Positions 1,765 through 53,637 are shown, counted from the stretch's first letter. The stretch: 64,000 bases of DNA from Hadesarchaea archaeon (GCA_004375695.1 SOKQ01000021.1:11505-75504), one strand, 5' to 3'. The notes: generated from the letters alone by a model not told the origin. Numbers and translations are program-made.

Positions 1765-1797
1765 ACTTTTACAGCGCGATTGCATGAATGGGATGCA

Positions 1798-2985: not shown

Positions 2986-3068
2986 CTTGGTAAAATTGAT
3001 TTACCACTTTTTGAGTAACAACTGGAACGCTGCAACCGAAACTACTAATTCATTGAAAAACCATTACC

Positions 3069-4770: not shown

Positions 4771-5399
4771 AGGTCGTTTCGTTTGACCTGGACGGGACGC
4801 TAATCGACCGGAAGTTCATGGATTCTCTCTGGTTCGAGGGCTTCTCCAGGCGTTACGCCGAGCGGTGGGGAGTTAGTCAGGAGGAGGCGCTGAAGGAGAT
4901 CACGCGCAGGTACGGCGGGGTCGGGATGGAAAGGCTCGAGTGGTACGATATCGACTATTGGTGGAAGGAGTTCGAGCTGGGCGGGAGCTGGAGGGACCTT
5001 GTCGATGAGCTCCGCTCGAACGTGAGGGCCTATCCGGAGGTCCACGAAGTCCTGGATGAACTCCATCGGAGGTTCAAGCTCATAGTCATCACGAACGGGG
5101 CGCGCGAGTTGGTCGAGGTGGAGACCGAGCAGGCCGGATTAAACGACTACATTGACCGGATGTTCTCCGCGACCTCGGATTTCGGGCTTGTAAAGAAGAC
5201 GAGCGAGTTCTACTTGGATATCCTGAAGGAGGTTGGCGTTTCCACCGCGGAGGTGGTACACGTGGGTGACAACTGGGTGTTCGACTACCTCGCGCCGAGG
5301 GAGGCCGGCATTCGGGCATTTTTCCTCGACCGCGATGGAAAGCAATCTGGGGAGTCAGTGGTTAGGGACCTGAAGGAGTTCTCGCGTCAGCTGTTGTGA
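4764..5399 (+). CDS. HAD family hydrolase
   Basis: N-terminal FDLDGTL motif I and a later VGDNWVFD motif IV. Confidence 0.7.
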   Translation: MTKVVSFDLDGTLIDRKFMDSLWFEGFSRRYAERWGVSQEEALKEITRRYGGVGMERLEWYDIDYWWKEFELGGSWRDLVDELRSNVRAYPEVHEVLDELHRRFKLIVITNGARELVEVETEQAGLNDYIDRMFSATSDFGLVKKTSEFYLDILKEVGVSTAEVVHVGDNWVFDYLAPREAGIRAFFLDRDGKQSGESVVRDLKEFSRQLL

Positions 5400-6229
5400 A
5401 CCTCATGAAAGCGGGACCTGAATGTCTGGATTGTCTGTGGAAGCTCTCGCGCCAGGCCACGGAGCTAGCGACCTCCGACCCCAAGGTGAAATCCATGATC
5501 GAGAGGGAAGTTTCGCGCATCCTAGGGCGCTTCTCTGAGGATATCGTTCCTTCGGATTTCGGCAACCAACTCCACCAGACCATCAGGGAGATCTCCAAGA
5601 ACCCCGACCCCTACAGCGAGCAAAAGTTGCGGGAGATCAAGACTGCAAGGCTGGCATTTTCGAAAATCAAACCTCGAGGGGATTTAAGGAGCTGTGTGGA
5701 GATCGCCGCCCAGGGGAACGCCATCGACTTCTTCGTGGATCCCGAAAGCCTCGGTCGCGAACTTTCCGTTAGACCGAATTTTGTCATAGACGATATAGCG
5801 AAGCTCGAGCGCAAGCTGGAGGGTGTCAAGGACATCCTGTATCTGGCCGACAACGCTGCCGAGGTGTTCTTCGACCTGCCCCTGCTGACGTTCCTCGGGA
5901 GGAAGGCGAGGGTGGGGTATGTGGTCAAGGAGAGCCCGGTTCAGAACGATCTGTCTGTTGGGGATATTCGACTTACGGGGCTTAGGCTTCCGGCCGAGAT
6001 CATCCCTTCACCCGCCACGGTGGGCTTTTACCCGGACAGGTCTTCTCCCCAGCTTAGAGAAAGGTTCGCGCGGGCGGACCTGGTGGTGGCTAAAGGGATG
6101 GGAAATTATGAAACGCTTTCGGAGTTGCCAGAAAGTGGGAAATTCTTCTACATCTTTCGAGCTAAATGTGGGCCAGTTGCACGAAGTCTGGGTGTAAACG
6201 TTGGAGACTACGTGGCGATGCTGCGATAG
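5396..6229 (+). CDS. DUF89/ARMT1-like protein (damage-control phosphatase family)
   Basis: N-terminal C-x2-C (ECLDC) and overall length and pattern typical of archaeal DUF89 proteins. Confidence 0.55.
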   Translation: MNLMKAGPECLDCLWKLSRQATELATSDPKVKSMIEREVSRILGRFSEDIVPSDFGNQLHQTIREISKNPDPYSEQKLREIKTARLAFSKIKPRGDLRSCVEIAAQGNAIDFFVDPESLGRELSVRPNFVIDDIAKLERKLEGVKDILYLADNAAEVFFDLPLLTFLGRKARVGYVVKESPVQNDLSVGDIRLTGLRLPAEIIPSPATVGFYPDRSSPQLRERFARADLVVAKGMGNYETLSELPESGKFFYIFRAKCGPVARSLGVNVGDYVAMLR

Positions 6230-6388
6230 GTCTGGCGAAAAAGTGTGGAATCAAATAAGGGTATTTATTCTATTCACTCCCGAACTAGGAGTTATATTTC
6301 TTATTATTGGGGCCTTAGTAACCGCTAGGGCGGATGAAGCCAGTACATTTGGCTAACAATGAGTTAAAAAGTTTCAGCAAGAGTAACT

Positions 6389-7135
6389 TTGATGCCCAAC
6401 AACTTGTACTATCGCATTTCCCACCGCCTATCCGGCTTCCGTCTTCTCGGCCTAGCCTTCACCCTGTTCGCCCTGGCAAACATCATAATTTACCTTTTGA
6501 TTTCCCTCCACCCCCCGCTCCTCGAGGGCCTCTGGCTCTCCGCCGACCGCCCCTGGGGCATCCTGACCTCAGCCTTCACCCACGCCGACCTCCCCCACCT
6601 CGCCAGCAACCTCGAGGGTTTCACCTTGGCGGCTTTGCTTTTCATCCCCGTGAGTTTGGCGTATCCGGCGAGGGTCCGCAGGCGTTGGAGCCGCATCTTC
6701 TTCTGGCTCGTATTCCTCGCCGGCATCGGTGCGAACGTGATAGAGTATCCGCTGATACTGGTCGGTCCTGGCTTCAACTCCTGGGGCGCTTCGGGAATCG
6801 TATACGGGGCCCTCGGAGTCCTCCTGGCGGCTTGCCTCCAGAGCCTACCGGACCACCTAAAGACACTTTCCAAGGAGCGTCGCCGGGTCCGCAGGCGTAA
6901 AAAATGGAGGCCGTTCAGATTCAATCGGAGATTCCTGAAAACTTTTCCCGCCCTCGTGACACTTTCCCTTCTCTTCTCCTTTTTCTGGCTGATTTTCACC
7001 GACCCCGGGGTTTTCCTGAGTGCCGGGCCGGGGATCGATGTGTTCGCCCACGGGTTCGGGTTCTTAGGGGGGTTCGGAGGTGCTATGGTTCTCTTCAGAT
7101 TTGATTTTCGCCGTGTTCGAGCAAGCGAAAATTAA
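6389..7135 (+). CDS. rhomboid family intramembrane serine protease
   Basis: GASGIVYG (GxSG catalytic Ser), a downstream AHGFGFLGG (catalytic His in the AHxxGxxxG context), and multiple TM helices. Confidence 0.7.
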   Translation: MMPNNLYYRISHRLSGFRLLGLAFTLFALANIIIYLLISLHPPLLEGLWLSADRPWGILTSAFTHADLPHLASNLEGFTLAALLFIPVSLAYPARVRRRWSRIFFWLVFLAGIGANVIEYPLILVGPGFNSWGASGIVYGALGVLLAACLQSLPDHLKTLSKERRRVRRRKKWRPFRFNRRFLKTFPALVTLSLLFSFFWLIFTDPGVFLSAGPGIDVFAHGFGFLGGFGGAMVLFRFDFRRVRASEN

Positions 7136-7316
7136 GTGGCGCGGTACATTTTCTATCGTATTTGATTCAAAATGCACTTCGTACAAACCGCTACACCTTC
7201 TTGCTTTCCGTTATTGGTAAACATTTTTATTCTTGCGGTCACATGTATCATTACCGATTGGGTCCGCGCAGGATGTCGTGATTCTCGTTCGACGGACCCG
7301 AGTTGAGGTGTTTCAG

Positions 7317-8513
7317 ATGCGAAAGTTAAAAGTTGCAGTTCTCGGTTGGGAGCCCCCATCTAGGAACAGGGTGGTGACGGGGGCCGGGATGTACCTCGGC
7401 TACCTAGCGGAGCTTGGAGTGTTTGCCCGTGCCCGAGGCCGAAAGCTCAGCCTCACATTCATCGTCCCCTCGCAGCGGGACAGGCTGGTCCACCGCGAGG
7501 GTTATCGGGTGCTGTTTGTCCGCACCCCGAGGTTTCGCGAGCACCGCCCGTACGACGCGGATGTCCTGTATCCGGCGACCAAAAGATTTGCGAAACGGTT
7601 GCTTGGAAGACGCAGCCCCGTCGATCTCAAAAAATTTGACGTGATCTTGGCCAACTCATTCGCCTTCGGGGAGCTGATCGCCCGCGCAAGACTCGACAAC
7701 TTCGTGTACATCTCTCACCGTCCCGAGTTCCTGCGGGAAAAATTTGCAGAGCGCTTTGGGGTCCGAATAGCAAGCAAACGCAGGCTTCGCCGTGATGCGA
7801 GGCTGGAGGCCAAAGCGATTGAGAATTCTAGGCGGACGATAACTGTGAGCAAAGCTTGTAAACGAGAGCTAGCTCGGCGGTTCGACCGTAACTGCATCGA
7901 CGTAATCTACAACGGAGTCGACACAAACCTGTTCAGCCGAGTCAAGTGCGAGTCCAACGGGAAAACTGTATTTACCTACGCCGGGCGGAACCACCCCGAA
8001 AAGGGAATCGACCTTCTCTTGCGGAGCGTCCAGCGCGTGGTAGACAGGGGGTGCTCCAACTTCGAGCTTCGGATGCTCACAGACGACGGCATCTTGTTAA
8101 AGCGGGCGGTGAAGCGCATGGACCTCTCTAAGTATGTCAAGCTGGTGGGATGGCGGCGGCTGCGCGAGCTTCCTCGCTATTACTCCTCAAGCACCTTCAC
8201 CATCATGCCCTCCTACTGGGAGAGCTTCTCATACGCGACGGCCGAGGGGCTGGCGTGTGAGGTGCCTACGATAGTCTCGACGGCTGGTGCGCTGCAAGAG
8301 ATGGTTGATGGTGAGGTTGGGCTGCACTTCCGGGCTGGGAGCGAGCGTGAGCTTGCCAACAGGCTGGAGGAGGCCTGTAGTTGTGACTCGGAGCGCGCGG
8401 CCGAGATGGGGCGGCGAGGGCGAAGGAGAGTCAAGCAGAAATTCTCGAAGGAGGCTTTCCTGAACAAATACCTACGGTACATCGAGCGGTTCGCGGATGG
8501 CGTGTTCTCTTAA
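7317..8513 (+). CDS. glycosyltransferase family 4 (GT-B, RfaB-like)
   Basis: C-terminal E-x7-E region ESFSYATAEGLACEVPTI typical of GT4. Start set at ATG 7317. Confidence 0.7.
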   Translation: MRKLKVAVLGWEPPSRNRVVTGAGMYLGYLAELGVFARARGRKLSLTFIVPSQRDRLVHREGYRVLFVRTPRFREHRPYDADVLYPATKRFAKRLLGRRSPVDLKKFDVILANSFAFGELIARARLDNFVYISHRPEFLREKFAERFGVRIASKRRLRRDARLEAKAIENSRRTITVSKACKRELARRFDRNCIDVIYNGVDTNLFSRVKCESNGKTVFTYAGRNHPEKGIDLLLRSVQRVVDRGCSNFELRMLTDDGILLKRAVKRMDLSKYVKLVGWRRLRELPRYYSSSTFTIMPSYWESFSYATAEGLACEVPTIVSTAGALQEMVDGEVGLHFRAGSERELANRLEEACSCDSERAAEMGRRGRRRVKQKFSKEAFLNKYLRYIERFADGVFS

Positions 8514-8523
8514 AAAAACACAT

Positions 8524-10095
8524 TTATCTATCTTCAGCCCAAGTGAACTTTCGCTGGAGAGTTTTGGGGTAGATTTTTTTCCAATCGTATGAAACTCCTC
8601 CCGCCCACTTGACGTAGAGGCGCGGGTCGATGTAGGACTTGAGCGATGTACCGAGGTTGTAGTCTCGCGTAGCCTTTGTCAGCTTCACCTTGAGTCTAGC
8701 AGCTCTCATCCTCCCCTGAAGGCTCTTTATCCGCTTCGCACGTGAGCGGGAGCGGGGCCTTTCCCTGACTTCCTTCAGCTTCTCCTTCAGGACTTTCAGT
8801 CTGTTCACTTTATTTTCAAGGGATTCCTTCCAGTTCTTCGGGAGCTTTCGTTTGTGGTGGCAGGTGATCGCCGCTTCAAGATTCGCCATCTTGGCCACAT
8901 ACTTCTTCTCGAAGTCTGTATCTTCCGGTCGAACCTTGGAATTGGCTAGATAGTCTCTGACGCTCTTCGAGGCGTGATAAGTCCTGAAGACCTTAGCCGT
9001 GAGCCCTGGCATCACTTGACCTAAGAAAGCGTTTACGTGCTCCGAGCGGACTCCCGAGAAAATGGGCGCCCTAGGCTTCCCGATGAAGGACTTCAGGTTG
9101 CTCACGACTTGAGCAGGCGGCCTGATGGTCCTGACCCACCTCACCGAGTCCTTGCCCAGGAAGTTGAATTTTACCCGTCCAGAGTGGTCTATCTTGACGT
9201 GTGCACCCCTCAGCGTTACTGCGCCAACGGTGTCAGCTTCATCCTTGTCCTTCTCGTCGCCGACCCTCGTCTTCAGATTATCTATCAAGTAAGATACGGT
9301 CGCGGTCTTGCGCTGAGCGAGGTCCTCCGAGGCCAAGCTCCCCTCGATGTGTTGCCGAACCCTTTCAACGAGCTCCTCCAGCTCTCGGGCCTTGTTGAAC
9401 TTTTCGATCTCGCGCTCTTGTTTGAATCGCGCGGTGTCGGCTATCCATAAATACTTAAGTTCCTCACTGAGCTTGTCTTGCCACTTGGCTATCCACATGG
9501 CATTCGGATCGAAGGCCCTTTCCTTCCAGCGCTTCCCGTTTGGAGGTGTTGGGGTGGGGGCATCGAGTGACAGGTTTAGAATTATATCCTCATAGGCGAC
9601 TCTTGGCTTCCATCTTCCTCGAAACGGATGCTTTCCCCTACCCATGAAAATGCTAGGGGGTTCGACGGTGTAGCCGATCTCTACCCGTTCACCGTTAAGC
9701 ACAGCGTATCCGTACTTTTCCTTGTTGGCTTCCCGAATTTTCTTCCTTGCTTCAGCCAACGCTTTTCGCTCCTCGCGTGACATGTTTTCCTTTTTGATTT
9801 TTTCCTGCTCGACCCAGCGTTGAATCTCGGAGAAATCGAAGTCTTCTATTTTAGAGGGAGTTTCAACCCCTAGGGCTTTGGAGAAGTCTTCCACAAAGTT
9901 CCTGGCGAAGACCGGGTCTTTCACGTAGTCAGTACCCAGTTTCTTGACCCATGCGACGGCCATCTCTTCTTGGTCTGGAGCTAAAGAGAGTTTCTTCCCC
10001 TTATAGCGGATGGTGAAGCCTCGGGGTTCGTAGGTAGGGATGAGAACACCATTGTGAATCAGTTGCTTTATTCTGGTAGGTTGCGGCATCTGCAT
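8524..10095 (-). CDS. DNA topoisomerase IB, eukaryotic type
   Basis: EPPSIFMGRGKHPFRG core. FLGKDSVRW, GLTAKVFRTYHAS and the active-site Tyr context LGTSLKSYIDPRL match the eukaryotic Top1 catalytic domain. Confidence 0.85.
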   Translation of the reverse strand: MQMPQPTRIKQLIHNGVLIPTYEPRGFTIRYKGKKLSLAPDQEEMAVAWVKKLGTDYVKDPVFARNFVEDFSKALGVETPSKIEDFDFSEIQRWVEQEKIKKENMSREERKALAEARKKIREANKEKYGYAVLNGERVEIGYTVEPPSIFMGRGKHPFRGRWKPRVAYEDIILNLSLDAPTPTPPNGKRWKERAFDPNAMWIAKWQDKLSEELKYLWIADTARFKQEREIEKFNKARELEELVERVRQHIEGSLASEDLAQRKTATVSYLIDNLKTRVGDEKDKDEADTVGAVTLRGAHVKIDHSGRVKFNFLGKDSVRWVRTIRPPAQVVSNLKSFIGKPRAPIFSGVRSEHVNAFLGQVMPGLTAKVFRTYHASKSVRDYLANSKVRPEDTDFEKKYVAKMANLEAAITCHHKRKLPKNWKESLENKVNRLKVLKEKLKEVRERPRSRSRAKRIKSLQGRMRAARLKVKLTKATRDYNLGTSLKSYIDPRLYVKWAGGVSYDWKKIYPKTLQRKFTWAEDR

Positions 10096-10242
10096 CGTTC
10101 TTTCTAAATCATTTGTTGTAATTAAATGTCATGGAGATTAGTTATGAAGTCAAAAATCGGTTCATGGTTTAATTGACCCAAGGGTTGTGGCGAGTTCGAA
10201 AAATGTCTGTGGGGCAAGATATCCCACCGAAGTGCTGCGCGA

Positions 10243-11331
10243 TTATAACCTGATTGCTCGCGTTGGGCAGACCGAAACACAGAGTCCGCAGCCGTAGCAT
10301 TTGACAGGGTCTAGGCGGGCGATTCTCCCGACGATACGGATCGCATCGTATGGACAGTATCGCTCGCAAAGTCCGCAGCCCGTGCACCTCGACGCAGTCA
10401 CCTCAGGAGGTTTGGTTGTGGTACGAAGAGGCTGCTCGGGCAAGTGATGAAGTGCGATGCCCTTAAAATCGCTGATCGAGTTGTAGCCTTTTGCACGCAT
10501 GAACTTGACCATCTCGTCTGCTATTAGCCCATAAATCTTGTATCCGCGGATTATCGCTGCAGTTGAGAGTTGCACCGCCGAGGCCCCAACCATGATGAAC
10601 TCAACCGCATCGCGCCCGTTGCTGATTCCGCCCGCTCCAATGACAGGTATCTTCACCGCGCGGCAGATGTCGGCCACGCATCGAACAGCGAGAGACTTGA
10701 TCGCGGGGCCTGAGAGCCAGCCATAGCCAGAGATGCTCCCGAGCATGGGCATCGTGTTTTCTATGTCGATTGCCAAGCATGGCCCCACCGAGTTTATCGC
10801 GACTATGCCATCTGCCCCCGCTTCCTCTACAGCTCGCGCGAACTGGGTCACGTCGGGTACGTTCGGGCTGAGTTTCACGAACACCGGGATATCGATGACC
10901 TCCTTCGCGGCTTTCGTCGCTTCGACCACCAGCGTCGAGTCGTTTTCGAGGTGGTGAGTCGATAGCTCGAGGGCATCCACACCGGCCGCCTTGAGCTTGG
11001 GGGCAACAGCCCGGATCTCCTCGGCATTGTAGCCAACGCTCGCTATCAACGGCAGCCTCGTTCGCTTCGCCTTCGCATACTCGTGGCGAAGCCATTGCTC
11101 GAGCGGCAGGTCGGTCCAAAGCTCGGCATTCAGCAAGCTATCCTTTACCTTGATTATACAGGGGCGGGGTACATGGGCAGGAGAAACGCTCACAGTTTTC
11201 GCGACCAATCCGCCCGCGCCACCCTCGGCGGCTTTTACCAAAGCATCTCCGTTGTGCACCGTGGGGCCAGCCGCAGGCAAAATGGGGTTACGGAATTTTA
11301 AGCCACATATTTCAACAGATAAATCAACCAT
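10243..11331 (-). CDS. dihydroorotate/dihydropyrimidine dehydrogenase-family flavoprotein with C-terminal 2x[4Fe-4S] ferredoxin domain (PreA-like)
   Basis: TIM-barrel DHOD-like N-terminus (GLKFRNPILPAAGP...GAGGISNGRDA) plus two CxxCxxCxxxCP motifs at the C-terminus. Confidence 0.65.
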   Translation of the reverse strand: MVDLSVEICGLKFRNPILPAAGPTVHNGDALVKAAEGGAGGLVAKTVSVSPAHVPRPCIIKVKDSLLNAELWTDLPLEQWLRHEYAKAKRTRLPLIASVGYNAEEIRAVAPKLKAAGVDALELSTHHLENDSTLVVEATKAAKEVIDIPVFVKLSPNVPDVTQFARAVEEAGADGIVAINSVGPCLAIDIENTMPMLGSISGYGWLSGPAIKSLAVRCVADICRAVKIPVIGAGGISNGRDAVEFIMVGASAVQLSTAAIIRGYKIYGLIADEMVKFMRAKGYNSISDFKGIALHHLPEQPLRTTTKPPEVTASRCTGCGLCERYCPYDAIRIVGRIARLDPVKCYGCGLCVSVCPTRAIRL

Positions 11332-11335
11332 CTCA

Positions 11336-12685
11336 TCAGCTCCTCTTTATTGCCTCAAACTTCTGCCAGAGTTTTTCCGCCGATTTCCGCGCCACTTTCA
11401 CCGCCTCCGCCTCGTCGAACATCTGCATTTTTCGTTCGCGCATTATGACCTTGCCCCCGACGACGACCGTTTCGATATCATCGCCATTAACGGTGTTGAC
11501 GATGTGTTCGGCGACATTTTCAGGACGTACAGGCGTAGGCGCGGGGGCCGAATTTATGATGATGATATCCGCGAGCTTTCCGTGCTCAATTGAACCTAGT
11601 TCGTTCTCCAGCCCGTAGAGTTCTGCCCCGCGGATTGTCGCCATCTTGAGCGCTTCCATGAACGAGATCGCGCGAGGATCGCGGAGGGCAACCTTGTGCA
11701 GCAAGAAGGCGGCCCGGATGTTCTCAAATCCATCGAAGATGTACCCATCGTTGCCCAAGCCCACAGGGATATCCATCATGAGCATTCGCACTATCGGCGC
11801 GACCCCAACTGCGTTGAGCATGTTGCTCATGGGGTTGTGAGCAACCTTTGCTCCAGTCTTTTTGATGATCGTCAACTCATCATCGTTGACATGCACGCAA
11901 TGAGCGAGCACGACATCCTGTGCGAGCAGCCCTTCATCGTTCAACCGTTCGATGGTGCGCTTGCCGAACCGTCCTAAATTGTGATAGAGGTCCGTCAGCC
12001 CCTCGGAGGTGTGGATGGTCACGGGCACTTTATAGCGACTCGCGAGTTCTCGGACGTAATGGAAGAGCTCGTTGGAAACTGTGAATGAAGCGTGAATGCT
12101 GAACATCCCTCGCACCCGGCTCATGCGTTTTTTCTTGATCTTCCGGATGAACCGCTCACTCTCTTTCGTGCCCCTGGCCCCCTCGGCGTGGGTGCGGCGC
12201 TCGGTCGCCTCAAACGATATGATGCCACGCATCCCCGATTGCTCGACCGCTGTAGCAATCCGATCCAGCACGCCAGTTATGGCGTTCGGGCCTGAAAAGG
12301 TGTCGGCAAACATAGTTGTGCCCGTCTTGATAAACTCAAGGCAGGAAATCAAAGCGCTAGCGTACGCATCCTCGCGGGTCATCTCCTCCTCCATCGGCCA
12401 CCAGACGCGCTGTAAAATTTGTGAGAAATCGGTAGGGGTTTCAATTTTCAACGGGGCGCCACGCAGAAGCGTGCCATAGAGATGGGTGTGTGAGCAAATG
12501 AGGCCGGGCATGACAATCTTGCCGCAGGCGTCGATGACCTCTTCTGGCTTGCTCTTGGTTTTCACCTTGCCCCGCTTGACCGAGATGATGCGGCCGTCTT
12601 CAACTGCAATCGAACCATTTGCAATGATGCGACAATCTTTGTCCATCGTGACTATCAAACCATTTTTAATTAATAAGTCAACCAT
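11336..12685 (-). CDS. metal-dependent amidohydrolase (SsnA/MtaD-like chlorohydrolase/deaminase family)
   Basis: PGLICSHTHL metal-binding HxH, HASF and HCVH motifs, about 450 aa. Confidence 0.65.
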   Translation of the reverse strand: MVDLLIKNGLIVTMDKDCRIIANGSIAVEDGRIISVKRGKVKTKSKPEEVIDACGKIVMPGLICSHTHLYGTLLRGAPLKIETPTDFSQILQRVWWPMEEEMTREDAYASALISCLEFIKTGTTMFADTFSGPNAITGVLDRIATAVEQSGMRGIISFEATERRTHAEGARGTKESERFIRKIKKKRMSRVRGMFSIHASFTVSNELFHYVRELASRYKVPVTIHTSEGLTDLYHNLGRFGKRTIERLNDEGLLAQDVVLAHCVHVNDDELTIIKKTGAKVAHNPMSNMLNAVGVAPIVRMLMMDIPVGLGNDGYIFDGFENIRAAFLLHKVALRDPRAISFMEALKMATIRGAELYGLENELGSIEHGKLADIIIINSAPAPTPVRPENVAEHIVNTVNGDDIETVVVGGKVIMRERKMQMFDEAEAVKVARKSAEKLWQKFEAIKRS

Positions 12686-24944: not shown

Positions 24945-25049
24945 GGGCCCGTGGTCTAGTGGTTATGAGGGAGTTGGCGTAGCCGCGCCCTAACAAACGT
25001 CGCCTTGACATGGCGAAGTTCCCGAGTTCGAATCTCGGCGGGCCCACCA
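24945..25049 (+). tRNA. tRNA-Val(GAC) with about 29-nt intron at non-canonical position (about 24/25 in D-stem), CCA encoded
   Basis: Acceptor GGGCCCG/CGGGCCC, discriminator A. Anticodon arm TCGCC-TTGACAT-GGCGA. T-arm CCGAG-TTCGAAT-CTCGG. An insert at 24969..24997 interrupts the D-stem. Confidence 0.65.
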
Positions 25050-46837: not shown

Positions 46838-47068
46838 TTGGTGTGGGAAATGAAAAAAAGATTTAACATCGTTATCGAAAGAGACGAAGATGGATATTAC
46901 GTGGCTTCGGTGCCCGAGTTACCGGGTTGCCATACCCAAGCTAAGAGCTTAGACGAACTGACCGCGCGTATGGACGAGGCAATCAAATTGTACCTCGAAG
47001 TTGAAAAAGAGGCTATTGATGTCAGCACTGAATTTGTTGGCGTGCAGGTAGTAGAGGTATCCATCTGA
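46838..47068 (+). CDS. hicB: HicB-family antitoxin (UPF0150)
   Basis: FNIVIERDEDGYYVASVPELPGCHTQAKSLDEL core. Confidence 0.75.
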   Translation: MVWEMKKRFNIVIERDEDGYYVASVPELPGCHTQAKSLDELTARMDEAIKLYLEVEKEAIDVSTEFVGVQVVEVSI

Positions 47069-47295
47069 GACTCAAACCCCTCTCAGCAGAAAAAGTCATT
47101 AAAGTTTTAGAAAAGATCGGTTTCAAAAGAGTGAGGCAAAAGGGAAGTCATCTTTTTCTCAAACACTTGGATGGGCGAATTACTGTAGTACCGATTCATA
47201 AGGGTGAGGAAATTGGGCGCGGTTTGTTGAGGAAGATAGTCAGGGATTCCAAGCTAACTAGGGAAGAATTTCTGAAATTTATTGAGGAAGTTTAG
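47065..47295 (+). CDS. hicA: HicA-family toxin (YcfA-like), no canonical start codon found
   Basis: Frame translates LKPLSAEKVIKVLEKIGFKRVRQKGSHLFLKH...V, a HicA fold. It overlaps the hicB stop. No in-frame ATG/GTG/TTG follows the upstream stop at 47029, so the start is unclear. Confidence 0.55.
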   Translation: MRLKPLSAEKVIKVLEKIGFKRVRQKGSHLFLKHLDGRITVVPIHKGEEIGRGLLRKIVRDSKLTREEFLKFIEEV

Positions 47296-47375: not shown

Positions 47376-48965
47376 TCACCTCCCAACAAATCTCCCAGCA
47401 GCCCTGACCAGCCACTCGGGCATCGGCACTATCCGCGCTATGAGCCTCAGATCGTCTTTCGTCACTGCTTTTGTTGCTAGGACCCACACCCCGTAGAACA
47501 CGAGGCTCGGTATCACTACCACAAATGCCTCCGGCCAAGGTGACAGCACCAAGACGGATTTGAGTCCAAAAATGATGAGCAATGTGAGCACCCCCCCAGT
47601 TACCGTTTTGAGCAGCGATAAAGCCGGCACGGTGAATTTAACGAGCTTCCGCGCGTAATAGAACATCAGGACTAGGCCGAGCGTGTAGGCGGAGAAGGTC
47701 GCTATCGCTGCTCCTTCGATTCCATAAGTCGGGATCAACACCAGGTTTCCCGCTAGGTTCAGCCCGGCCATCAGGGCAACGACTTTTGTGTTGATAATCG
47801 GCTTGCCTATCCCATTTATGGTGCTCACGAGGATGGCGTATAGCATGTAAACGATTGCGGCCCCGGCGAGAATCTGGAGAACCGTTGTCCCGGCCAAGTA
47901 TCTCGAGCCGAACAGCAGGTTGATAACTATGTCTGGAAACGCTATGAAGACGAGCGCCGCCGGGATGATTAAAATAAATGAAAATTTGATCAGAAAGTGT
48001 AGCGCGTTCCTCAAGAGTTTCCGCTCGCGCCTCGCCCAGAGCTCGGATATCATCGGAAAGAGAACGACCACCAAGGGGGTCACGAGGTACCACAGGATGC
48101 GAGCGGCCGGCTGCGCGGTCTGGTAGAAGCCGACCTGTTTCGAGGACCAAAAACCGGCGATCATCAGGGTATCCGTGTAGCCGATGATAAGTCCCCCAAG
48201 TCCACCGATGAAAACCGGCAGCGCAAACACGAACAGCTTTTTGATCAGTGATTTTGTAATCTGGACTTTTTCCTTGATGACTCGGGGATAGCCCCTCCAG
48301 AAGAGGAAAAACCCGAGAACCGCCACGACCGATAAAGCGAGCATATAGGCGTAAGCGGCTCCCTCGATACCGATACCGAACAGGCCGACGAGGAGGATCG
48401 CCGAGAGTAAAACGAAGAATATTTCAAAGAAACTCATCAACGCATACGCCGGCATGTTCTGAAAGCCCTGAAATGTCCACCTGAAAGTGAAGGAAAAAAT
48501 CGCCACGAAGAACCAGATGCTCAAAATTTTGACCACGAGCGACGCATTTGCCATCCCGACAATAGCCAGATCGGCAGGGCTGGAAAATGCGAGGACAATC
48601 TGATCGGAAAATACGAACAACATCACTGCGACCAAAAACGCGAGGATTGCCTGGAAGAGCAGGATAAATGTCATGGACGATTTTATTCTGCCGTACTGCC
48701 CCCTGAGCTTGAACTCGGGGATGTGCTTCACCACGGCCGAACCCAGGCCAAAATCACGGAAGAGCGCGAAGAAGGAGACCAACGCGATGGCCGTGTAAAA
48801 AAAGCCGTACTCTTCAACGCTGAACGAACGTGCGAGGAACATTCGCAGCAGGAACGCTATGAAGCCCGATGCGATGAGCGCCACGAAAACTATGGCACTG
48901 CCCTTGACCAGGCGCCTAGCGTAGCTTTTGGGGTCGGGCATTTCATCCTCCTCGAACGGTTCCAC
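47376..48965 (-). CDS. polysaccharide biosynthesis protein, Wzx-like MOP flippase
   Basis: 529 aa, about 14 TM helices, MATE/Wzx-like pattern. Confidence 0.75.
   Translation of the reverse strand: MEPFEEDEMPDPKSYARRLVKGSAIVFVALIASGFIAFLLRMFLARSFSVEEYGFFYTAIALVSFFALFRDFGLGSAVVKHIPEFKLRGQYGRIKSSMTFILLFQAILAFLVAVMLFVFSDQIVLAFSSPADLAIVGMANASLVVKILSIWFFVAIFSFTFRWTFQGFQNMPAYALMSFFEIFFVLLSAILLVGLFGIGIEGAAYAYMLALSVVAVLGFFLFWRGYPRVIKEKVQITKSLIKKLFVFALPVFIGGLGGLIIGYTDTLMIAGFWSSKQVGFYQTAQPAARILWYLVTPLVVVLFPMISELWARRERKLLRNALHFLIKFSFILIIPAALVFIAFPDIVINLLFGSRYLAGTTVLQILAGAAIVYMLYAILVSTINGIGKPIINTKVVALMAGLNLAGNLVLIPTYGIEGAAIATFSAYTLGLVLMFYYARKLVKFTVPALSLLKTVTGGVLTLLIIFGLKSVLVLSPWPEAFVVVIPSLVFYGVWVLATKAVTKDDLRLIARIVPMPEWLVRAAGRFVGR
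47383..47553. repeat. direct repeat copy 2 (within 3' end of intact flippase gene)
   Basis: See copy 1. Confidence 0.65.
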
Positions 48966-49040
48966 CGTGATATCTGCCTAAATCATTAAAAATAGTGAGC
49001 CCGAGGGATTCATCTAAGCGGGAAACAGGCAATCAAGCTT

Positions 49041-49796
49041 TCAGACATTGGAGCCAATCCATTCCTGAACAGCTTTGACGATGCGTTTTACGCTCTCCTC
49101 TATGAGGGTTTCTCCCTTTTCTTTAGAGGCTTCACTGACTCTTCCATGATAACCAGCCCAAGTCTCTCGATGAGTTTCCCCACACACTACATGAAGTGCC
49201 TCATTCGCGCTTCCGGGTTTTAGGTCGATGTCTTTTCCTTTGCTCAGTTCCACCGCCTCGGGTTTGATCGCTTGAACTACTGAAGTTTCCAGCGGACCAC
49301 CGTGACCGTGCCCCCCGCTTTGAGAGAAGAAGCCCAACGAATTAACGAAAGACTCTGGGAGCGTCTGCCACCAATTAATTAGCAGGACAAATCGGTCCGG
49401 AAATTCATCGGCAATAACCTCCCCCGCGGCCTTGACCACCTCGATATTTCCGTCGTGCGCGTTTAGCACGAGTATTCCTTTCACACCCGCTGCTAGGATG
49501 CCACGAAATACCTCGGTCAGATACTCGATCATTGCGTCTGTTCTTACGGACACGGTTCCCGGATATCCCTTGGTGGCTGATGGGCAATGACTGTAAGCAA
49601 TCAGGGGGAAAAGTACTCCCCCCAGTCTTTTTGCAACCCGTTCTGCGATAGCGGTGGCGATGATGCTGTCAGTGCCGAGTGGAGCGTGAGGCCCGTGGAA
49701 CTCGATACTCCCCATCGGAAGAATTCCCAGGGAGGCCCCGCGAAGCTGTTCCTTGGCACGAAATCCGGTAACGTTAAGAACCTCAACATGTTCCAT
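49041..49796 (-). CDS. creatininase-family amidohydrolase
   Basis: LGILPMGSIEFHGPHAPLGTDS N-terminal signature, 251 aa. Confidence 0.7.
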   Translation of the reverse strand: MEHVEVLNVTGFRAKEQLRGASLGILPMGSIEFHGPHAPLGTDSIIATAIAERVAKRLGGVLFPLIAYSHCPSATKGYPGTVSVRTDAMIEYLTEVFRGILAAGVKGILVLNAHDGNIEVVKAAGEVIADEFPDRFVLLINWWQTLPESFVNSLGFFSQSGGHGHGGPLETSVVQAIKPEAVELSKGKDIDLKPGSANEALHVVCGETHRETWAGYHGRVSEASKEKGETLIEESVKRIVKAVQEWIGSNV

Positions 49797-49855: not shown

Positions 49856-49935
49856 TGGCGGGCCCGCGGGGATTCGAACCCCGGATTTGCAGCTTTCTTC
49901 GCCAAGATAGAAGGCTTGCGGGTGTTGCCACTTGC
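49856..49935 (-). repeat. partial tRNA-Arg(TCT) copy A (3' two-thirds, retains intron, carries a 13-nt insertion, ends ...CGGGCCC-G-CCA)
   Basis: Minus strand reads GCAAGTGGCAACACCCGCAAGCCTTCTA[TCTTGGCGAAGAA]AGCTGCAAATCCGGGGTTCGAATCCCCGCGGGCCCGCCA. It matches the full gene at 52143..52232. No matching 5' acceptor strand is found upstream. Confidence 0.6.
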
Positions 49936-49978
49936 TCTACGCGATTTGAATAGAGAAAAGACCTTCATTCAGTTTATT

Positions 49979-50015
49979 GACCGATAGGTTTATACAGTAA
50001 CCGATAGGTTTATAA
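49979..50015 (+). promoter_or_regulatory. tandem 15-nt direct repeat (accgataggtttata x2, 7-nt spacer) ending 4 nt upstream of the MNT gene start
   Basis: Exact duplication seen in sequence at 49979..49993 and 50001..50015. Confidence 0.35.
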
Positions 50016-50018
50016 GTT

Positions 50019-50582
50019 ATGCTACGAGAATTCAGGAAATTCAAAGGCTGGGTAATCCTCGAGTTCTTCCTCACTCATCCTAGCACCAAAATCCACTTCA
50101 AGGAACTTGTCCGCAAGCTCAGAGTGAGCCCAAGAACGGCACAGATATATCTCAAGACATTTGAGGACGATGGAATTTTGACGAAAGAGAGAGTCGGGAA
50201 CCTGACAATTTTTTCTTTAAATAACGAGTTGCAACTGGTTAGAGAATTAAAAAAAGCGCATTTTCTCCTCGCGCTGAATGAACTCGGGTTTCTTGATCAT
50301 TTTTTAAAAGGGAATTCTGGGGCTGTATCTCTAGCGTTATACGGTAGCTGCGCGGAGGGAACCTACGATGAAAAGAGTGATATTGATTTTTTAGTCATTA
50401 AACGCAGGGAAGTGGACAAACGTTCATTCAAAGAACTCGAAAAGTGGGCGAAGAAGGAGGTCCTCGTCACATGCATGGAACCCGTAGAATGGAATAGGAA
50501 AGCCAAGGAAAAAGATCCGTTTTATCGCAACGTCGTCAGAAAACACATCCTGCTCTATGGGGCCGATTTGGTGGTAGAGTGA
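50019..50582 (+). CDS. minimal nucleotidyltransferase (MNT) with N-terminal wHTH
   Basis: ALYGSCAEGTYDEKSDIDFLVI (GS-x9-13-DxD) Pol-beta-type NTase motif. Confidence 0.7.
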   Translation: MLREFRKFKGWVILEFFLTHPSTKIHFKELVRKLRVSPRTAQIYLKTFEDDGILTKERVGNLTIFSLNNELQLVRELKKAHFLLALNELGFLDHFLKGNSGAVSLALYGSCAEGTYDEKSDIDFLVIKRREVDKRSFKELEKWAKKEVLVTCMEPVEWNRKAKEKDPFYRNVVRKHILLYGADLVVE

Positions 50583-51007
50583 ACCTGCGTGAATGTTTTG
50601 AGAAGGGCTTGTTGGTAAAGGGGCGAGCGAGCGAGGCAACTGTTGAGAGCACTATCCGGTTGGCTAAGCATAGCATCGAGAGGGCCGAAGGAAATTTTAA
50701 CATGGAGTACTTCGATGTTGCGTTCACCCTAGCGTATCAAGCGATGCTACATGCTGCTAGAGCGCTTCTTTTCAGGGATGGGGTCAAAGAAAGGAGCCAT
50801 GCTTGTGTGGTAGTGTACCTAAAGGAGAAATACAGAAGAAATTCACGGTTGATTAAGTATTTCAATCTCTTGGACTCTTACAGGATCAGCCGGCACGAGA
50901 TAGTGTACAGAGGAGGTAACATCCCACGGGAGGAAGCTTCCAGCGTGATTGAAGACGCTAAAGATTTCCTAAATACTGTGGAAAATATTTTGAAGCCGCA
51001 GCGGTAA
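50579..51007 (+). CDS. HEPN domain protein (partner of MNT)
   Basis: 4-bp overlap with the MNT gene and an R-x4-H motif (RISRHE) in the C-terminal helix. Confidence 0.65.
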   Translation: MNLRECFEKGLLVKGRASEATVESTIRLAKHSIERAEGNFNMEYFDVAFTLAYQAMLHAARALLFRDGVKERSHACVVVYLKEKYRRNSRLIKYFNLLDSYRISRHEIVYRGGNIPREEASSVIEDAKDFLNTVENILKPQR

Positions 51008-51061
51008 AACGTCTTGTTTAGATATCGCAAAAAACTAGCTCAAATAAGCCCCCTTAAAAGT

Positions 51062-51113
51062 GGGCCCGCGGGGATTCGAACCATAGGTCTGCAGCTTAGA
51101 AGTCTGCCGCCTG
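51062..51113 (-). repeat. partial tRNA-Arg(TCT) copy B (3' part, intron-less, degenerate T-arm)
   Basis: Minus strand reads AGGCGGCAGACTTCTAAGCTGCAGACCTATGGTTCGAATCCCCGCGGGCCCAC. It matches the spliced form of the 52143..52232 gene from the D-stem 3' strand onward. Confidence 0.55.
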
Positions 51114-51145
51114 CGTGCTGACGCCGATTCCCTGTTTGGTATAAT

Positions 51146-52114
51146 ATGGTATTTAATATAAAGTCAGAGAAATCCATATATATTTATAAGACTGATATGG
51201 ATTTGACTAATATGGTAAATCAAGACATATTACTTGAGAAACTGCGTTCGATCCTCCTTGAACGGGTGAGTTTAGAGAACATCCCCGAGCCCGTGTGGAA
51301 GCGTACGGCGGCCCTTAACACATGGGGCACGAACGCGGTAGAGGGAAGCACGATCAGTTGGGAAGACGCGCAGCGCTTGCTCATTGATGGCAAGGGGGTC
51401 CCAGACAAGCCGGTGAGGGACATCATGGAGACGATTCAGCACGAGCGTGCATTCCGCTCGCTCCCGGAGCTTCGAGGGACGCCCTTGGATTTGAAACGCA
51501 TCCTCCAACTCCACGAATCCGTCTTCAGAGGAATCCTGTCCGACGCTGGCCAGTGGCGGCGGGCAAACGTCCGGGTGAGGGGGGCCGCCTTTACACCTCC
51601 GAGGATGGAAAAGGTCTTGGCAGAACTCGAGGTTTATGAGCAGGAGTACAGGAAACGGGATGTTGCAGGAGATGGGGTATTCAGGCTGGGCGCTTGGATG
51701 CATTTCGAGTTCGAACGCATTCACCCATTCACGGATGGAAACGGGCGGGTCGGCAGGCTGCTGCTGAACCTTCACTTCCTCAATCACAACTGGCCGCCAA
51801 TACATGTCCTCCCCCGCCATAGGGATAACTACCTCCACGCGCTGAACGAGGCTGCAAAGGGTAACCTCTCACCGCTGGAGCGCCTCCTGAAGCTCCTGAT
51901 GGGCGCTAGCCTCGTGGACCTTCTGCATCAACTGGGAACCTCCGTGGACGAGCTAATGGACCTGAAGGATATCTCAAAATTCGTGCCCTATGGACCAAAG
52001 TACTTGGCGCTCCGATGTCAACAGGGTGCCATACCCGCAGTTAAGACGGGCAGGGAATGGCAGACGAGCAGAAGGGTGCTTGATCTTTATTCCAAGCTTG
52101 TAGCTAGAAAGTAG
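51146..52114 (+). CDS. Fic/DOC family protein
   Basis: Canonical Fic motif HPFTDGNGRVGR. Start uncertain (several in-frame ATGs up to about 51212). Confidence 0.8.
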   Translation: MVFNIKSEKSIYIYKTDMDLTNMVNQDILLEKLRSILLERVSLENIPEPVWKRTAALNTWGTNAVEGSTISWEDAQRLLIDGKGVPDKPVRDIMETIQHERAFRSLPELRGTPLDLKRILQLHESVFRGILSDAGQWRRANVRVRGAAFTPPRMEKVLAELEVYEQEYRKRDVAGDGVFRLGAWMHFEFERIHPFTDGNGRVGRLLLNLHFLNHNWPPIHVLPRHRDNYLHALNEAAKGNLSPLERLLKLLMGASLVDLLHQLGTSVDELMDLKDISKFVPYGPKYLALRCQQGAIPAVKTGREWQTSRRVLDLYSKLVARK

Positions 52115-52142
52115 TTGGGATTTAGCTCCATTTGAAAAGGCG

Positions 52143-52232
52143 GGCCCGCGGGGATTCGAACCCCGGATCTGCAGCTTAGAAGGCTTGCGGGTCTGAGACT
52201 TGCCGCCTTATCCAGCTAGGCCACGGGCCCAT
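52143..52232 (-). tRNA. tRNA-Arg(TCT) with 16-nt intron inside the anticodon stem (about 29/30), CCA not encoded
   Basis: Minus strand reads GGGCCCG-TG-GCCT-AGCTGGATA-AGGC-G-GCA[AGTCTCAGACCCGCAA]GC-CTTCTAA-GCTGC-AGATC-CGGGG-TTCGAAT-CCCCG-CGGGCCC-G. After excision the product is 74 nt. Confidence 0.65.
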
Positions 52233-52287
52233 GTTGAATTTAACGCGAGATGATTTAATATGTATGATACAATTATTCACGGTACCC

Positions 52288-53637
52288 ATGTTGAAACTCT
52301 TCGGAACCTTCGGCGTTCGGGGCATCGCAAATCGAGAGTTGACCCCCAAGCTAGCGTTTGAGCTCGGTCTAGCCCTAGCAACACACCTGAATGGCAAGGG
52401 AAAAATCGCGGTTGGGCGCGATAATCGCACTTCAAGCGAGATGTTAGAGCATGCGCTGATCGCTGGCCTAACAGCTGGCGGGTGCGAAGTGCTTAAGCTA
52501 GGCCTAACCCCCACGCCTGTGCTCTCCTTCGCCATCCGCCACTTCTCGTGTGACGCGGGCGTCATCATCACCGCTTCCCACAATCCACCCGAGTACAACG
52601 GGATCAAGTTCTGGGATAGCGAGGGCGCTGGGTTCGAGCGCAAGCGCGAGCGGGAGATCGAGCGCATCGTTTTCAAAGGGGGAAAGCGGGCTGATTGGCA
52701 GCACATCGGGCGCGTAAGCGAGGCCGACCCTCTGGAGCCCTATATCGATGCCATGTTGAAGCGTGTCCCAAAGTTCAAGCGTGGACTAAAAGTGGTCGTA
52801 GATTGCGGTAATGCCACAGGCAGCGTGGTGACACCTCGTTTGCTTCGAGAACTTGGCTGCAAGGTGGTCTCGCTCAACTGCCAGCTAGACGGCACTTTTC
52901 CGGGGCGCAAGCTCGAGACGGTTCCAGAAAACTTGGGTGAGCTCGCTAAAACCGTCGTCGCCTGCAAGGCCGATTTGGGGGTAGCCCACGATGGTGACGC
53001 GGATCGAACGTTGATCGTGGATGAGCGAGGTGAGATTCTCAGCGGCGACCGCATTTTCGCACTCGTGGCGTTGCATTACCTTCGCGAACGGAAGCGCCCC
53101 CGCATCGTGACCACGGTGGCCACCAGCACGGTACTTGATGATGTAGCTTCGAAGCTCGGCGGAGAAATCGCACGCACGCGAGTGGGGGAGCCTGAGATTA
53201 TCGGGGAATTTCGAAAGCGGGGTGGCGACATTGGCGGCGAAGAGAACGGAGGCGTCATCTTCCCAGACTGGCTGCTCTGCCGTGAAGGTATCATGACCGC
53301 TGTGAAGTCCATTGAGCTGCTCGACCGTACTGGCATGAAGGTTTCGGAATTAAATTCCACGCTGCCTCGTTACTCGCAGATTAAGCAAAGAGCCAAATGC
53401 CCGAACGAGCTTAAGCCCAAAGTCCTCAAAGCTCTCGCCAAGCGCTTCGCTAAGTACAAATTGGACCGCACCGATGGTCTGCGGGTAATTTTCGATGACG
53501 GCTGGCTGCTGCTCCGGCCTTCTGGGACCGAGCCTATCTTTAGATGCTTCGCCGAGGCTCGCGATGAGGAGCGGGTAGAGAAGCTGGTAAAACTTGGGAT
53601 GCGAGAACTGAAGGAATGCATTCGAAAGTTGTCGTGA
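52288..53637 (+). CDS. phosphohexomutase (phosphoglucosamine mutase/phosphomannomutase family)
   Basis: TASHNPPEYNGIKF active-site Ser loop and GDGDADR metal loop. Start moved to ATG 52288 to clear the tRNA. Confidence 0.8.
   Translation: MLKLFGTFGVRGIANRELTPKLAFELGLALATHLNGKGKIAVGRDNRTSSEMLEHALIAGLTAGGCEVLKLGLTPTPVLSFAIRHFSCDAGVIITASHNPPEYNGIKFWDSEGAGFERKREREIERIVFKGGKRADWQHIGRVSEADPLEPYIDAMLKRVPKFKRGLKVVVDCGNATGSVVTPRLLRELGCKVVSLNCQLDGTFPGRKLETVPENLGELAKTVVACKADLGVAHDGDADRTLIVDERGEILSGDRIFALVALHYLRERKRPRIVTTVATSTVLDDVASKLGGEIARTRVGEPEIIGEFRKRGGDIGGEENGGVIFPDWLLCREGIMTAVKSIELLDRTGMKVSELNSTLPRYSQIKQRAKCPNELKPKVLKALAKRFAKYKLDRTDGLRVIFDDGWLLLRPSGTEPIFRCFAEARDEERVEKLVKLGMRELKECIRKLS

Follow-up and report, generated by a model that had tools for sequence, protein, structure and literature searches.

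Displaced 3' fragments of a tRNA-Arg(UCU) gene and toxin-type cargo in a Hadesarchaea archaeon: probable tandem accretion of small integrative-element remnants

Introduction

Why is a tRNA gene followed by several pieces of its own 3' part, with unrelated genes in between? The question is raised by a locus of a Hadesarchaea archaeon (GCA_004375695.1, SOKQ01000021.1:11505-75504), of which 64,000 nucleotides were analysed (the window; positions are counted from its first letter). A tRNA-Arg(TCT) gene on the minus strand is accompanied by two partial copies of itself, copies B and A. The genes in between code for a Fic-domain protein and for a pair of a minimal nucleotidyltransferase (MNT) and a HEPN protein. 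A prediction made from the sequence alone (the original prediction) had read this arrangement as two stacked integrations into the 3' part of the tRNA gene, each with cargo between a left and a right attachment site (attL, attR), and without an integrase.

tRNA genes are integration targets, and tRNA fragments derived from integration are pervasive (PMC9897764). In Prochlorococcus tycheposons, newer elements push older ones into tRNA-proximal islands (bioRxiv 10.1101/2020.12.28.424599). The accretion of decayed elements without integrase, the cis-mobilisable elements (CIMEs), is well described in bacteria (PMC5704250, reviewing Pavlovic 2004 and Bellanger 2011). Thaumarchaeota have arrays of tyrosine-recombinase elements and integrations into intron-containing tRNA genes (PMC6563490), and for Caldiarchaeum it was proposed that a small mobile element is linked to intron heterogeneity at a tRNA locus (Sugahara 2012, PMC3293823). 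The locus of the window belongs to this well-known kind of tRNA integration hotspot, as a CIME-like genomic islet. Its array very probably arose by tandem accretion of remnants of small integrative elements at the tRNA gene, a hotspot that extends across the lineage of Hadarchaeota.

Results and Discussion

The tRNA-Arg gene and its displaced fragments

The functional tRNA-Arg(UCU) gene is located at 52141..52230 on the minus strand and is recognised by the Rfam tRNA model (45.7 bits, E 9e-8). Alignment by hand to an intron-less orthologue (locus L006; loci are designated by L numbers) placed one 16-nt non-canonical intron at approximately 52186-52201, in the 5' strand of the anticodon stem. 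The gene reads GGGCCCG UG GCCU AGCUGGAUA AGGC G GC up to the intron and AGC CUUCUAA GCUGC AGAUC CGGGG UUCGAAU CCCCG CGGGCCC G after it, with the anticodon UCU and a T-stem of five pairs out of five. Its sequence is identical in L168, L130, L135 and L114, irrespective of the cargo behind it. The working gene acts as the proximal, attL-like attachment (att) site of the array.

The array has the order tRNA, Fic, copy B, HEPN-MNT, copy A, creatininase, remnant Z, flippase, and all tRNA segments are on the minus strand. The four tRNA-derived segments, in the same orientation, form three brackets. A 21-mer, GGTTCGAATCCCCGCGGGCCC, occurs exactly three times in the window at an expectation of 0.01, which excludes chance. 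The tRNA gene and copies A and B lie within 1-2 nt of their predicted coordinates.

Copy B (51061..51112, minus strand) is an intron-less 3' fragment that runs from the 3' strand of the D-stem (AGGCGGCAG...) to the discriminator base. Its T-stem is broken: the 5' strand TATGG faces the 3' strand CCCCG, with three of five pairs formed, and its anticodon stem has one A:G mismatch. Copy A (49856..49935, minus strand) starts with GCAAGT at position 27 in the anticodon stem and ends with GCCA. It contains a 17-nt version of intron 1 and 13 extra nucleotides (49895-49907), which sit exactly at the canonical 37/38 intron position and resemble intron 2 of related genes. The intron, the 13-nt insertion and the CCA end attributed to copy A in the original prediction were all found; the insertion is the canonical-position intron that relatives still carry.

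The fourth segment had not been predicted. Remnant Z comprises the last 16 nt of the tRNA (GAATCCCTCGGGCTCA, 48996-49011, minus strand), that is, the 3' half of the T-loop and the 3' strands of T-stem and acceptor. It is followed by an ancestral tRNA 3' flank (CTATTTTTAATGATTTAGGCAGATATCACG, 48966-48995, minus strand) that abuts the start codon of the flippase gene, so that the whole feature covers 48966..49011. Remnant Z lies within the 75 nt that separate the stop codon of the creatininase gene from the start codon of the flippase gene. Together with its flank it aligns to the flippase-adjoining tRNA or to the most distal fragment end in 12 other loci. Five of the 12 (L166, L107, L158, L136 and L131) are empty sites, in which the match is the working tRNA's own end. 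The blastn homology between the window and L149 extends exactly to 49011.

The same array order is present in a Logan assembly of SRR7716471 (L002, L004) and in JABUBO010000004.1 (L096, L130), the latter 96-98% identical. Its recurrence in two independent assemblies of near-identical strains makes an assembly artefact unlikely. The same segments and genes in a syntenic, non-mobile context of related genomes would have spoken against integration. The identical layout was found in these near-identical strains only and not in more distant relatives.

Copies A and B could also be 3' halves of split tRNA genes that are trans-spliced to 5' halves encoded elsewhere, an alternative already named in the original prediction. 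Split and multi-intron tRNA genes do occur in archaea. In copy A, moreover, T-arm and acceptor strand are intact, the 5' end is close to an intron position and the 3' end is CCA. An intact full-length gene with the same anticodon is, however, only 2.2 kb away, and the 64-kb window has a single 5' half. The mispaired T-stem (3/5) and the A:G mismatch of copy B argue in the same direction, as do the homologous distal copies in L005 and L153 (#5), which carry deletions and acceptor mutations. The DNA upstream of copy A is the divergent promoter region of the MNT gene and travels with the cassette. Split genes are a highly improbable explanation.

Two computational points concern the annotation of such genes. 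ARAGORN called the working gene tRNA-SeC(tca), which was rejected as an intron artefact on the basis of the Rfam model and the manual alignment. ARAGORN found none of the intron-bearing orthologues, and Rfam and manual alignment were used instead. Besides the miscalled working tRNA, fragments such as copy A are at risk of being counted as genes in error. When the intron region was folded as RNA, the z-score was not significant.

Empty and occupied sites in Hadarchaeota

If the fragments are traces of integration, related genomes may show the site without insertions. The window belongs to a JGI metagenome contig of 120.7 kb. Its GlmM is 70-80% identical to GlmM of Hadesarchaea/Hadarchaeota metagenome-assembled genomes (MAGs), and each of the six closest MAG loci has tRNA-Arg(TCT) upstream of glmM in divergent orientation. 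In five of these the tRNA gene has 103-105 nt and two introns, one of 16-17 nt and one of 13 nt at 37/38; the sixth, L006, has a tRNA-Arg without intron. A degenerate DNA pattern for the tRNA 3' part yielded 87 metagenome stretches, on which GlmM, the flippase and the tRNA pieces were mapped. The general order across Hadarchaeota contigs is glmM, tRNA-Arg(TCT), flippase. In the window, the glmM-type phosphoglucosamine mutase gene (52231..53637, plus strand; Pfam PGM_PMM I-IV) is divergent from the tRNA gene, and it is a conserved chromosomal flank that adjoins tRNA-Arg(TCT) in essentially every related contig containing glmM. The conserved distal flank is the gene of a Wzx/MurJ-like polysaccharide flippase (47376..48965, minus strand; Pfam Polysacc_synt 1e-30).

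Approximately 20 related contigs have an empty site, with the tRNA 3' end 40-95 nt from the flippase start. The original prediction had expected the creatininase gene to follow the tRNA directly in relatives; these contigs establish the flippase gene as the native neighbour instead. In the window and 13 other loci with both genes on the contig, the gap between tRNA and flippase is 0.56-7.5 kb. Thirteen metagenome loci and the MAG locus L005 contain two to five tRNA fragments each, in the same orientation.

The loci most similar to the window differ in their cargo. L135, L114 and L168 share its tRNA sequence and distal flank (flank nucleotide identity 81-96%). L135 has an AbiEi-like pair, L114 a luciferase-like gene, and L168 a Fic gene with a different MNT/DUF86 pair. 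The cargo between the tRNA fragments is mostly of the toxin-antitoxin or defence type: MNT-HEPN, AbiEi/AbiEii, the AbiEi-like pair, PIN proteins with ribbon-helix-helix (RHH) or AbrB partners, DUF3368, other nucleotidyltransferases, Fic and ATPase_2/DUF234. Other cargo includes an S-adenosylmethionine (SAM) methyltransferase, a cupin, DUF2061, a luciferase-like oxidoreductase and TnpB.

Several further observations were made on these loci. The anticodon loop of the fragments in L132 (8391-8442) and L169 (3588-3652) is GTCCTAA, of the Arg(CCT) type and not TCT; some att copies hence derive from a different isoacceptor gene or host. The most distal copy of L129 (272-377, minus strand) is full length with both introns and one G:U-compatible change, and could be a still-working second tRNA-Arg gene rather than a dead remnant. 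Genes for TnpB/IS605 OrfB (Cas12f-like) are located inside or next to the tRNA-Arg arrays of L137 (2640-3761) and L085 (641-1834), so a second class of mobile elements uses the same island. The contigs of four of the six closest MAGs (L006, L007, L009 and L010) end 7-500 nt after the tRNA-Arg gene, which is consistent with assembly breaks at a strain-variable, repeat-bearing hotspot.

Cargo cassettes of the window

Each cassette of the window is bracketed by tRNA-derived repeats, has a size of approximately 0.9-1.2 kb and encodes cargo only. The stacking of insertions was predicted correctly, and the number was not: there are three cassettes rather than two, as the creatininase gene is cargo as well and remnant Z is a fourth tRNA segment.

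Cassette 1, next to the tRNA gene, codes for a Fic-domain protein (51146..52114, plus strand) with matches to Pfam Fic (5e-19) and to the PADLOC models PDC-S04 (5.6e-28) and SoFic (5e-24). The true start is probably the ATG at 51194; the orthologue in L168 begins with MDLTNM. Gene and tRNA are convergent, with the Fic stop codon 27 nt from the tRNA 3' end. The translation contains the active-site motif HPFTDGNGRVGR and a TNAVEG motif. Engel and colleagues reportedly defined, in 2012, class II Fic proteins by HxFx(D/E)GN(G/K)R together with an inhibitory helix, (S/T)xxxE(G/N), located N-terminally in the same protein. Both class II motifs are present, and the protein is predicted to be a self-inhibited class II-type Fic encoded by a single gene. 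The calls of MNT, HEPN and Fic as toxin-type cargo hold, with the qualification that Fic is not a two-gene toxin module. The Fic cassette is 93.7% identical in L168, compared with approximately 86% for the creatininase flank.

Cassette 2 codes for the MNT-HEPN pair. The MNT (50019..50582, plus strand), a putative antitoxin fused to a winged helix-turn-helix (wHTH), matches Pfam NTP_transf_2 (2.8e-9) and, over the full length, PADLOC PDC-M05A (5.4e-22). Its N-terminus has weak Pfam matches to helix-turn-helix domains. A search for the nucleotidyltransferase motif GS...DxD found GSCAEGTYDEKSDID. The match to NCBIfam MntA_antitoxin is weak, with 25 bits below the cutoff of 60. The HEPN protein (50579..51007, plus strand), the putative RNase toxin of the pair, matches Pfam HEPN (1e-15) and PADLOC PDC-M05B (1.9e-7). 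In place of the Rx4-6H that was sought, its translation has RISRH with R-x3-H spacing (RNLRH in L118). The two genes are adjacent and overlap by 4 nt, as in type VII toxin-antitoxin systems; PADLOC places the pair in the candidate defence system PDC-M05A/B. Upstream of the MNT gene, in the promoter region, are two exact 15-nt direct repeats ACCGATAGGTTTATA, 20 nt apart (49980..50014; repeat family D9). They are kept with the cassette in L137 and L170 and belong to its element-derived arm. Probably the repeats represent a TATA box and a putative (auto)regulatory operator for the wHTH domain.

Cassette 3 codes for a creatininase-family amidohydrolase (49041..49796, minus strand, as the tRNA; Pfam Creatininase 3e-51). 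The gene was first considered a native flank, an assignment rejected after remnant Z was found. Of the loci retrieved, only close relatives of the window (L096, L114, L135 and L168) were found to have it, and it is absent where tRNA and flippase gene are direct neighbours. It appears to be inserted cargo too, bounded distally by remnant Z.

Cassette movement between genomes

The MNT-HEPN cassette of the window is 89% identical to that of L137 and 91.5% to that of L102, with flanking genes at 67-68%. For the AbiEi-like cassette, the identity between genomes is 90-92%, compared with 71-76% for their glmM genes. Cassettes at 89-92% next to flanks at 67-76% point to horizontal movement of the cassettes.

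Both junctions of the MNT-HEPN cassette are conserved, each in three contexts. One arm, TTAAGGGGCTTATT.GAGCTAGTTTTTGCGA, starts directly after the tRNA copy in the window (copy B), L102 and L137. The opposite arm, ...TCTTTTCTCTATTCA..TC.CGTAGRGCAAGTGGCAA.ACC(C)GCAAGCCTTCTA, is common to the window, L137 and L170; past the anticodon loop, the three differ in T-arm, 3' flank and the presence of intron 2. Conservation of this arm in three hosts indicates that the cassette carries a tRNA-like arm of its own, which mimics even intron 1.

Both copies in the window appear composite. The part of copy A located 5' of the anticodon loop is common to the same cassette in L137 and L170, and divergence begins after the loop. 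L135 and L168 have the same 3' flank as copy A, GCCATTTTGTGCC. The portion of copy A that begins with the anticodon loop would be inherited from the resident gene. Its two introns suggest that it preserves an ancestral two-intron 3' part and that the working gene has lost intron 2. The 3' flank of copy B, TTAAGGGGCTTATT.GAGCTAG, is common to L102 and L137, and copy B with the cassette 3' of it is 91.5% identical to the working intron-less tRNA of L102 with its HEPN-MNT cassette. Copy B would be the 3' part of a formerly functional gene, displaced on the arrival of the Fic cassette. Its intron-less 5' portion may stem from the Fic segment's own arm, and the remainder resembles the intron-less working allele that accompanies the same cassette in L102. 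The approximately 52 nt of copy B hold three of the 34 differences between the window and the 98% identical sister strain L096. The original prediction had explained the intron-less state of copy B by an att site that evolved against the mature tRNA sequence or a paralog. Copy B is indeed intron-less, but a mature-tRNA origin is not needed: intron-less genomic alleles of this gene function in L006, L102, L118, L149 and L097.

L165 has a two-intron tRNA gene (9481-9587), followed in the region 7979-9430 by an MNT-HEPN cassette approximately 73% identical to that of the window and, further on, a second partial HEPN-like match with a degenerate T-arm remnant. It may represent a tandem of related cassettes.

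Integrases at the same tRNA gene

Site-specific insertion into a tRNA gene raises the question of the enzyme. The absence of an integrase, part of the original prediction, was borne out for the whole window: a hidden Markov model (HMM) of the tyrosine recombinase family described below had no match in its 64 kb. Integrase genes or remnants are present at this tRNA in relatives. L134 has a truncated tyrosine recombinase (77-892, minus strand; Pfam Phage_integrase, E 7e-6) at this same tRNA, and the 3' end of its gene reads antisense through the T-arm (...GGPAGIRTPDLQ). Open reading frames (ORFs) directly 3' of the tRNA in the Hadarchaeota MAG locus L010 and in L091 show similarity to the N-terminal half of this integrase family, and each of them is truncated by the end of its contig. 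The evidence for these two is tblastn and a self-built family HMM; Pfam has no model of the N-terminal half.

The family had 594 detected members, with approximately 450-475 amino acids (aa) at full length and a weak match to the Pfam 'archaeal phage integrase'. In L172, from a Bathyarchaeia genome, a 472-aa member (10001-11419) is part of a block of approximately 11.6 kb with mostly hypothetical genes (645-12428). At its borders this block has a 140-nt tRNA with an intron and a 14-nt repeat of the 3' end of the same tRNA, and it is probably an integrated virus or plasmid. Five family members are located on IMG/VR viral contigs; in one of these, a convergent partial tRNA follows the integrase gene at a distance of 56 nt from the stop codon. 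The C-terminal peptides of several homologues correspond to a tRNA acceptor and T-arm translated in antisense. Integrases at this tRNA in relatives and tRNA-ended homologues indicate that the needed enzyme class is present in the lineage and targets tRNA ends. The cassettes of the window either lost their integrase or never carried one.

Upstream of the L134 integrase gene is a 551-aa ORF (1297-2952, plus strand) with weak similarity to MULE/Mutator transposases; this transposase gene may have disrupted the integrase. The L134 integrase fragment had no match in a sequence search of the PDB. A crude regular expression for tyrosine recombinases, applied to all loci, matched mostly radical-SAM and sugar-nucleotide enzymes, and L134 was the sole real match.

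These findings also bear on whether the array is still in use. Units of approximately 1 kb, similar to CIMEs or integron cassettes, could be excised as circles and re-inserted whole by a tyrosine integrase encoded elsewhere, on a virus, a plasmid or the genome. The same MNT-HEPN cassette with the same two arms occupies different array positions in the window, L137, L102 and L170, in hosts with approximately 67% flank identity. The cassettes form complete operons, each equipped with a promoter region and containing hardly any additional DNA. Members of the tRNA-targeting integrase family are found at this tRNA gene in three contigs, and also on viral contigs, and mobilisation of bacterial CIMEs by the integrase of a related element is documented (PMC5704250). 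However, neither a circular junction (P arm, att, P' arm) nor identical cassettes in tandem were seen, and the window has no match to an integrase. The AbiEi-like cargo has variable boundaries and a size series of 4.9, 2.6 and 1.55 kb (L160, L153 and L135/L129, respectively), which resembles stepwise deletion rather than a fixed unit. An active platform is possible but not probable.

Proposed course of events

Accretion of remnants at the tRNA gene, the central claim of the original prediction, is supported by the empty sites in approximately 20 contigs, by differing cargo at otherwise similar loci, by cassettes more conserved than their flanks and by integrases at the same tRNA. The ancestral state would be a two-intron tRNA-Arg gene directly beside the flippase gene; a two-intron gene is seen in L005 and L007-L010. 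Each incoming DNA would have carried a tRNA-like att site, and the working gene would have been rebuilt from the host's 5' part and the incomer's 3' part. Every insertion would have pushed the previous 3' part downstream as a dead fragment: first Z, then A, then B.

The oldest step would be the entry of the creatininase segment, which left remnant Z with its start in the T-loop. The MNT-HEPN segment may have entered second, by recombination 3' of intron 1 and 5' of the intron-2 site, with the old 3' part becoming copy A. The working gene would thereby have kept intron 1 and lost the canonical intron 2, which survives in the window only in copy A. The Fic segment would be the most recent arrival, displacing copy B. 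The present segments would be remnants or mini-elements of approximately 0.9-1.2 kb without integrase, and their self-promoted genes may tend to persist once acquired; selection may have favoured retention of toxin-antitoxin genes. The most likely recombinase is a tyrosine integrase that targets tRNA genes; either its gene was later deleted, or a virus or plasmid provided the enzyme in trans.

The order with the newest cassette nearest the gene is in agreement with the distal creatininase cassette being common to all close relatives and the proximal cassettes being variable. The mispaired T-stem of copy B and its share of the sister-strain differences fit this order as well. Loss of introns is indicated by the window, L118, L129 and L153, in which distal copies have two introns and the working gene one or none. 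In the whole data set, there is no simple relation between site occupancy and the number of introns in the working gene. The tRNA gene has no intron at many empty sites, which limits the claim of intron loss to comparisons within arrays.

Several observations weigh against a simple series of integrations. No integrase or integrase pseudogene was found in or beside the 14 arrays or in the 64-kb window, and no excised circle or attP form was observed. Viral contigs contained no close relatives of the MNT and Fic cargo proteins; a scan of these contigs with the tRNA-Arg 3' pattern had 0 matches and revealed no contig in attP form. Intergenic gaps in the window are 27-85 nt, so that any decay must have been very clean. 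The 5' ends of fragments are heterogeneous (position 1, D-arm, anticodon stem or T-loop), boundaries of the AbiEi-like cargo differ in L129, L135 and L153/L160, and the 'same' MNT-HEPN cassette is joined to different T-arms in the window, in L102 and in L137. T-stems are mispaired, often chimeric, in 7/26 partial copies versus 1/88 full-length copies. Heterogeneous ends, differing boundaries and chimeric T-stems mean that no single fixed crossover point is established. Crossovers in the T-loop, as suggested by chimeric T-stems, and then in the anticodon loop, as suggested by the MNT-HEPN junctions, were considered in turn. The data fix no point common to all events; an account by a single mechanism was rejected, and later gene conversion is likely.

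Homologous recombination would explain part of this. Duplications of the tRNA or one old integration could have been followed by swapping of cargo via glmM and tRNA on one side and tRNA fragments and flippase on the other, without any site-specific recombinase. Chimeric T-stems in copy B of the window, the distal copy of L135, L137 (#3) and L160 (#3), the variable fragment endpoints and the shuffling of modules between L153 and L160 fit such exchanges. The T-stem 5' strand of L160 (#2) matches the resident tRNA, in contrast to the homologous L153 (#3), and the functional tRNA is identical in five close relatives irrespective of cargo. Homologous recombination alone, however, cannot explain how unrelated cargo newly entered exactly at the 3' end of the tRNA. 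It leaves unexplained the tRNA-like arms borne by cassettes, of which the MNT-HEPN arm is conserved in three hosts with differing tRNAs. Nor does it explain why integrase genes adjoin or overlap this tRNA, or the transfer between genomes with only approximately 67% flank identity. As the sole process it is unlikely. The variable fragment ends and boundaries, the size series, the mispaired T-stems and the shuffled modules indicate that site-specific integration is overlaid by deletion and by homologous recombination or gene conversion between the repeats.

Comparison with known systems

Accretion of remnants at the tRNA-Arg gene is closest in layout to that of bacterial CIMEs (PMC5704250). Both have a full target gene followed by 3' fragments in the same orientation, one per element, with the newest element nearest the intact gene, and resident units that keep att sites and have no integration genes. 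The cassettes of the window keep att sites and lack genes for integration and transfer. Distinct are the Hadarchaeota host, units of approximately 1 kb with a single operon and no identified conjugative partner element.

Tycheposon islands of Prochlorococcus share the conserved location beside a tRNA, older elements pushed inward, scattered partial tRNAs, degenerate elements and cargo variation at strain level. Many tycheposons keep a tyrosine recombinase, and their cargo serves mostly nutrient acquisition, whereas the arrays described here have no intact integrase and mostly toxin-antitoxin or defence cargo. Archaeal tRNA-integrated elements (SSV/pNOB8-type, Thermococcales, and integrated mobile genetic elements (iMGEs) of Thaumarchaeota; PMC6563490, PMC9897764, PMC5495485) likewise integrate by tyrosine recombinases, also into intron-containing tRNAs, leave partial tRNA copies as att remnants and form arrays. 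Described elements are typically approximately 9-23 kb or larger and have an integrase (PMC9897764), in contrast to the minimal, integrase-free units at this site. The integrase family of relatives (approximately 450-475 aa) may not be of the SSV type.

Integron cassette arrays, including superintegrons rich in toxin-antitoxin genes, resemble the locus in single-function cassettes of approximately 1 kb with one repeat each, in toxin-antitoxin content and in growth at one end. The head of the array is, however, a tRNA gene beside glmM, with no IntI or other recombinase and no attI or Pc. The repeats are tRNA fragments and not attC hairpins. The cassettes have AT-rich promoter regions of their own and read mostly towards the tRNA. 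An integron-like platform at an essential tRNA gene, where single-operon cassettes of approximately 1 kb are swapped between lineages via tRNA-derived att sites by a virus-type integrase in trans and where insertions drive tRNA intron loss, is rather doubtful. If it existed, it would carry mostly toxin-antitoxin and defence cassettes with some metabolic ones, and older intron states would be fossilised in the displaced copies.

The Caldiarchaeum locus (PMC3293823) shares heterogeneity of intron number at one tRNA locus at population level, tied to a tRNA fragment and a small recombinase-bearing insertion. Gain of introns and scattering of fragments were proposed there, whereas the apparent direction here is loss. 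Integration into a tRNA gene can change its intron complement, which bears on the question of gain and loss of archaeal tRNA introns.

Within this well-known kind of hotspot, the host phylum, the compactness of cassettes (one operon, spacers of 27-85 nt), the bias towards toxin-antitoxin and defence genes, the depth of arrays with up to five tRNA pieces and the fossil record of intron loss in displaced copies stand out. For a phylum of uncultured archaea without genetic system, the locus documents where and how accessory genes of the defence and toxin-antitoxin type reach the chromosome. A natural series for the study of an archaeal integrase-free "gene capture" is formed by the empty sites, the arrays with one to four cassettes, the cassettes common to divergent hosts and the variants with an integrase.

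Neighbouring features

A gene pair for a HicB-like antitoxin and a HicA toxin (46838-47295, plus strand) is located just past the flippase gene, outside the array; no tRNA fragment was detected beside it. A second intron-bearing tRNA gene of 102 nt (24945-25046, plus strand) was missed by ARAGORN and recognised by Rfam with 53.3 bits. Its T-arm and acceptor region is three mismatches from that of the tRNA-Arg gene.

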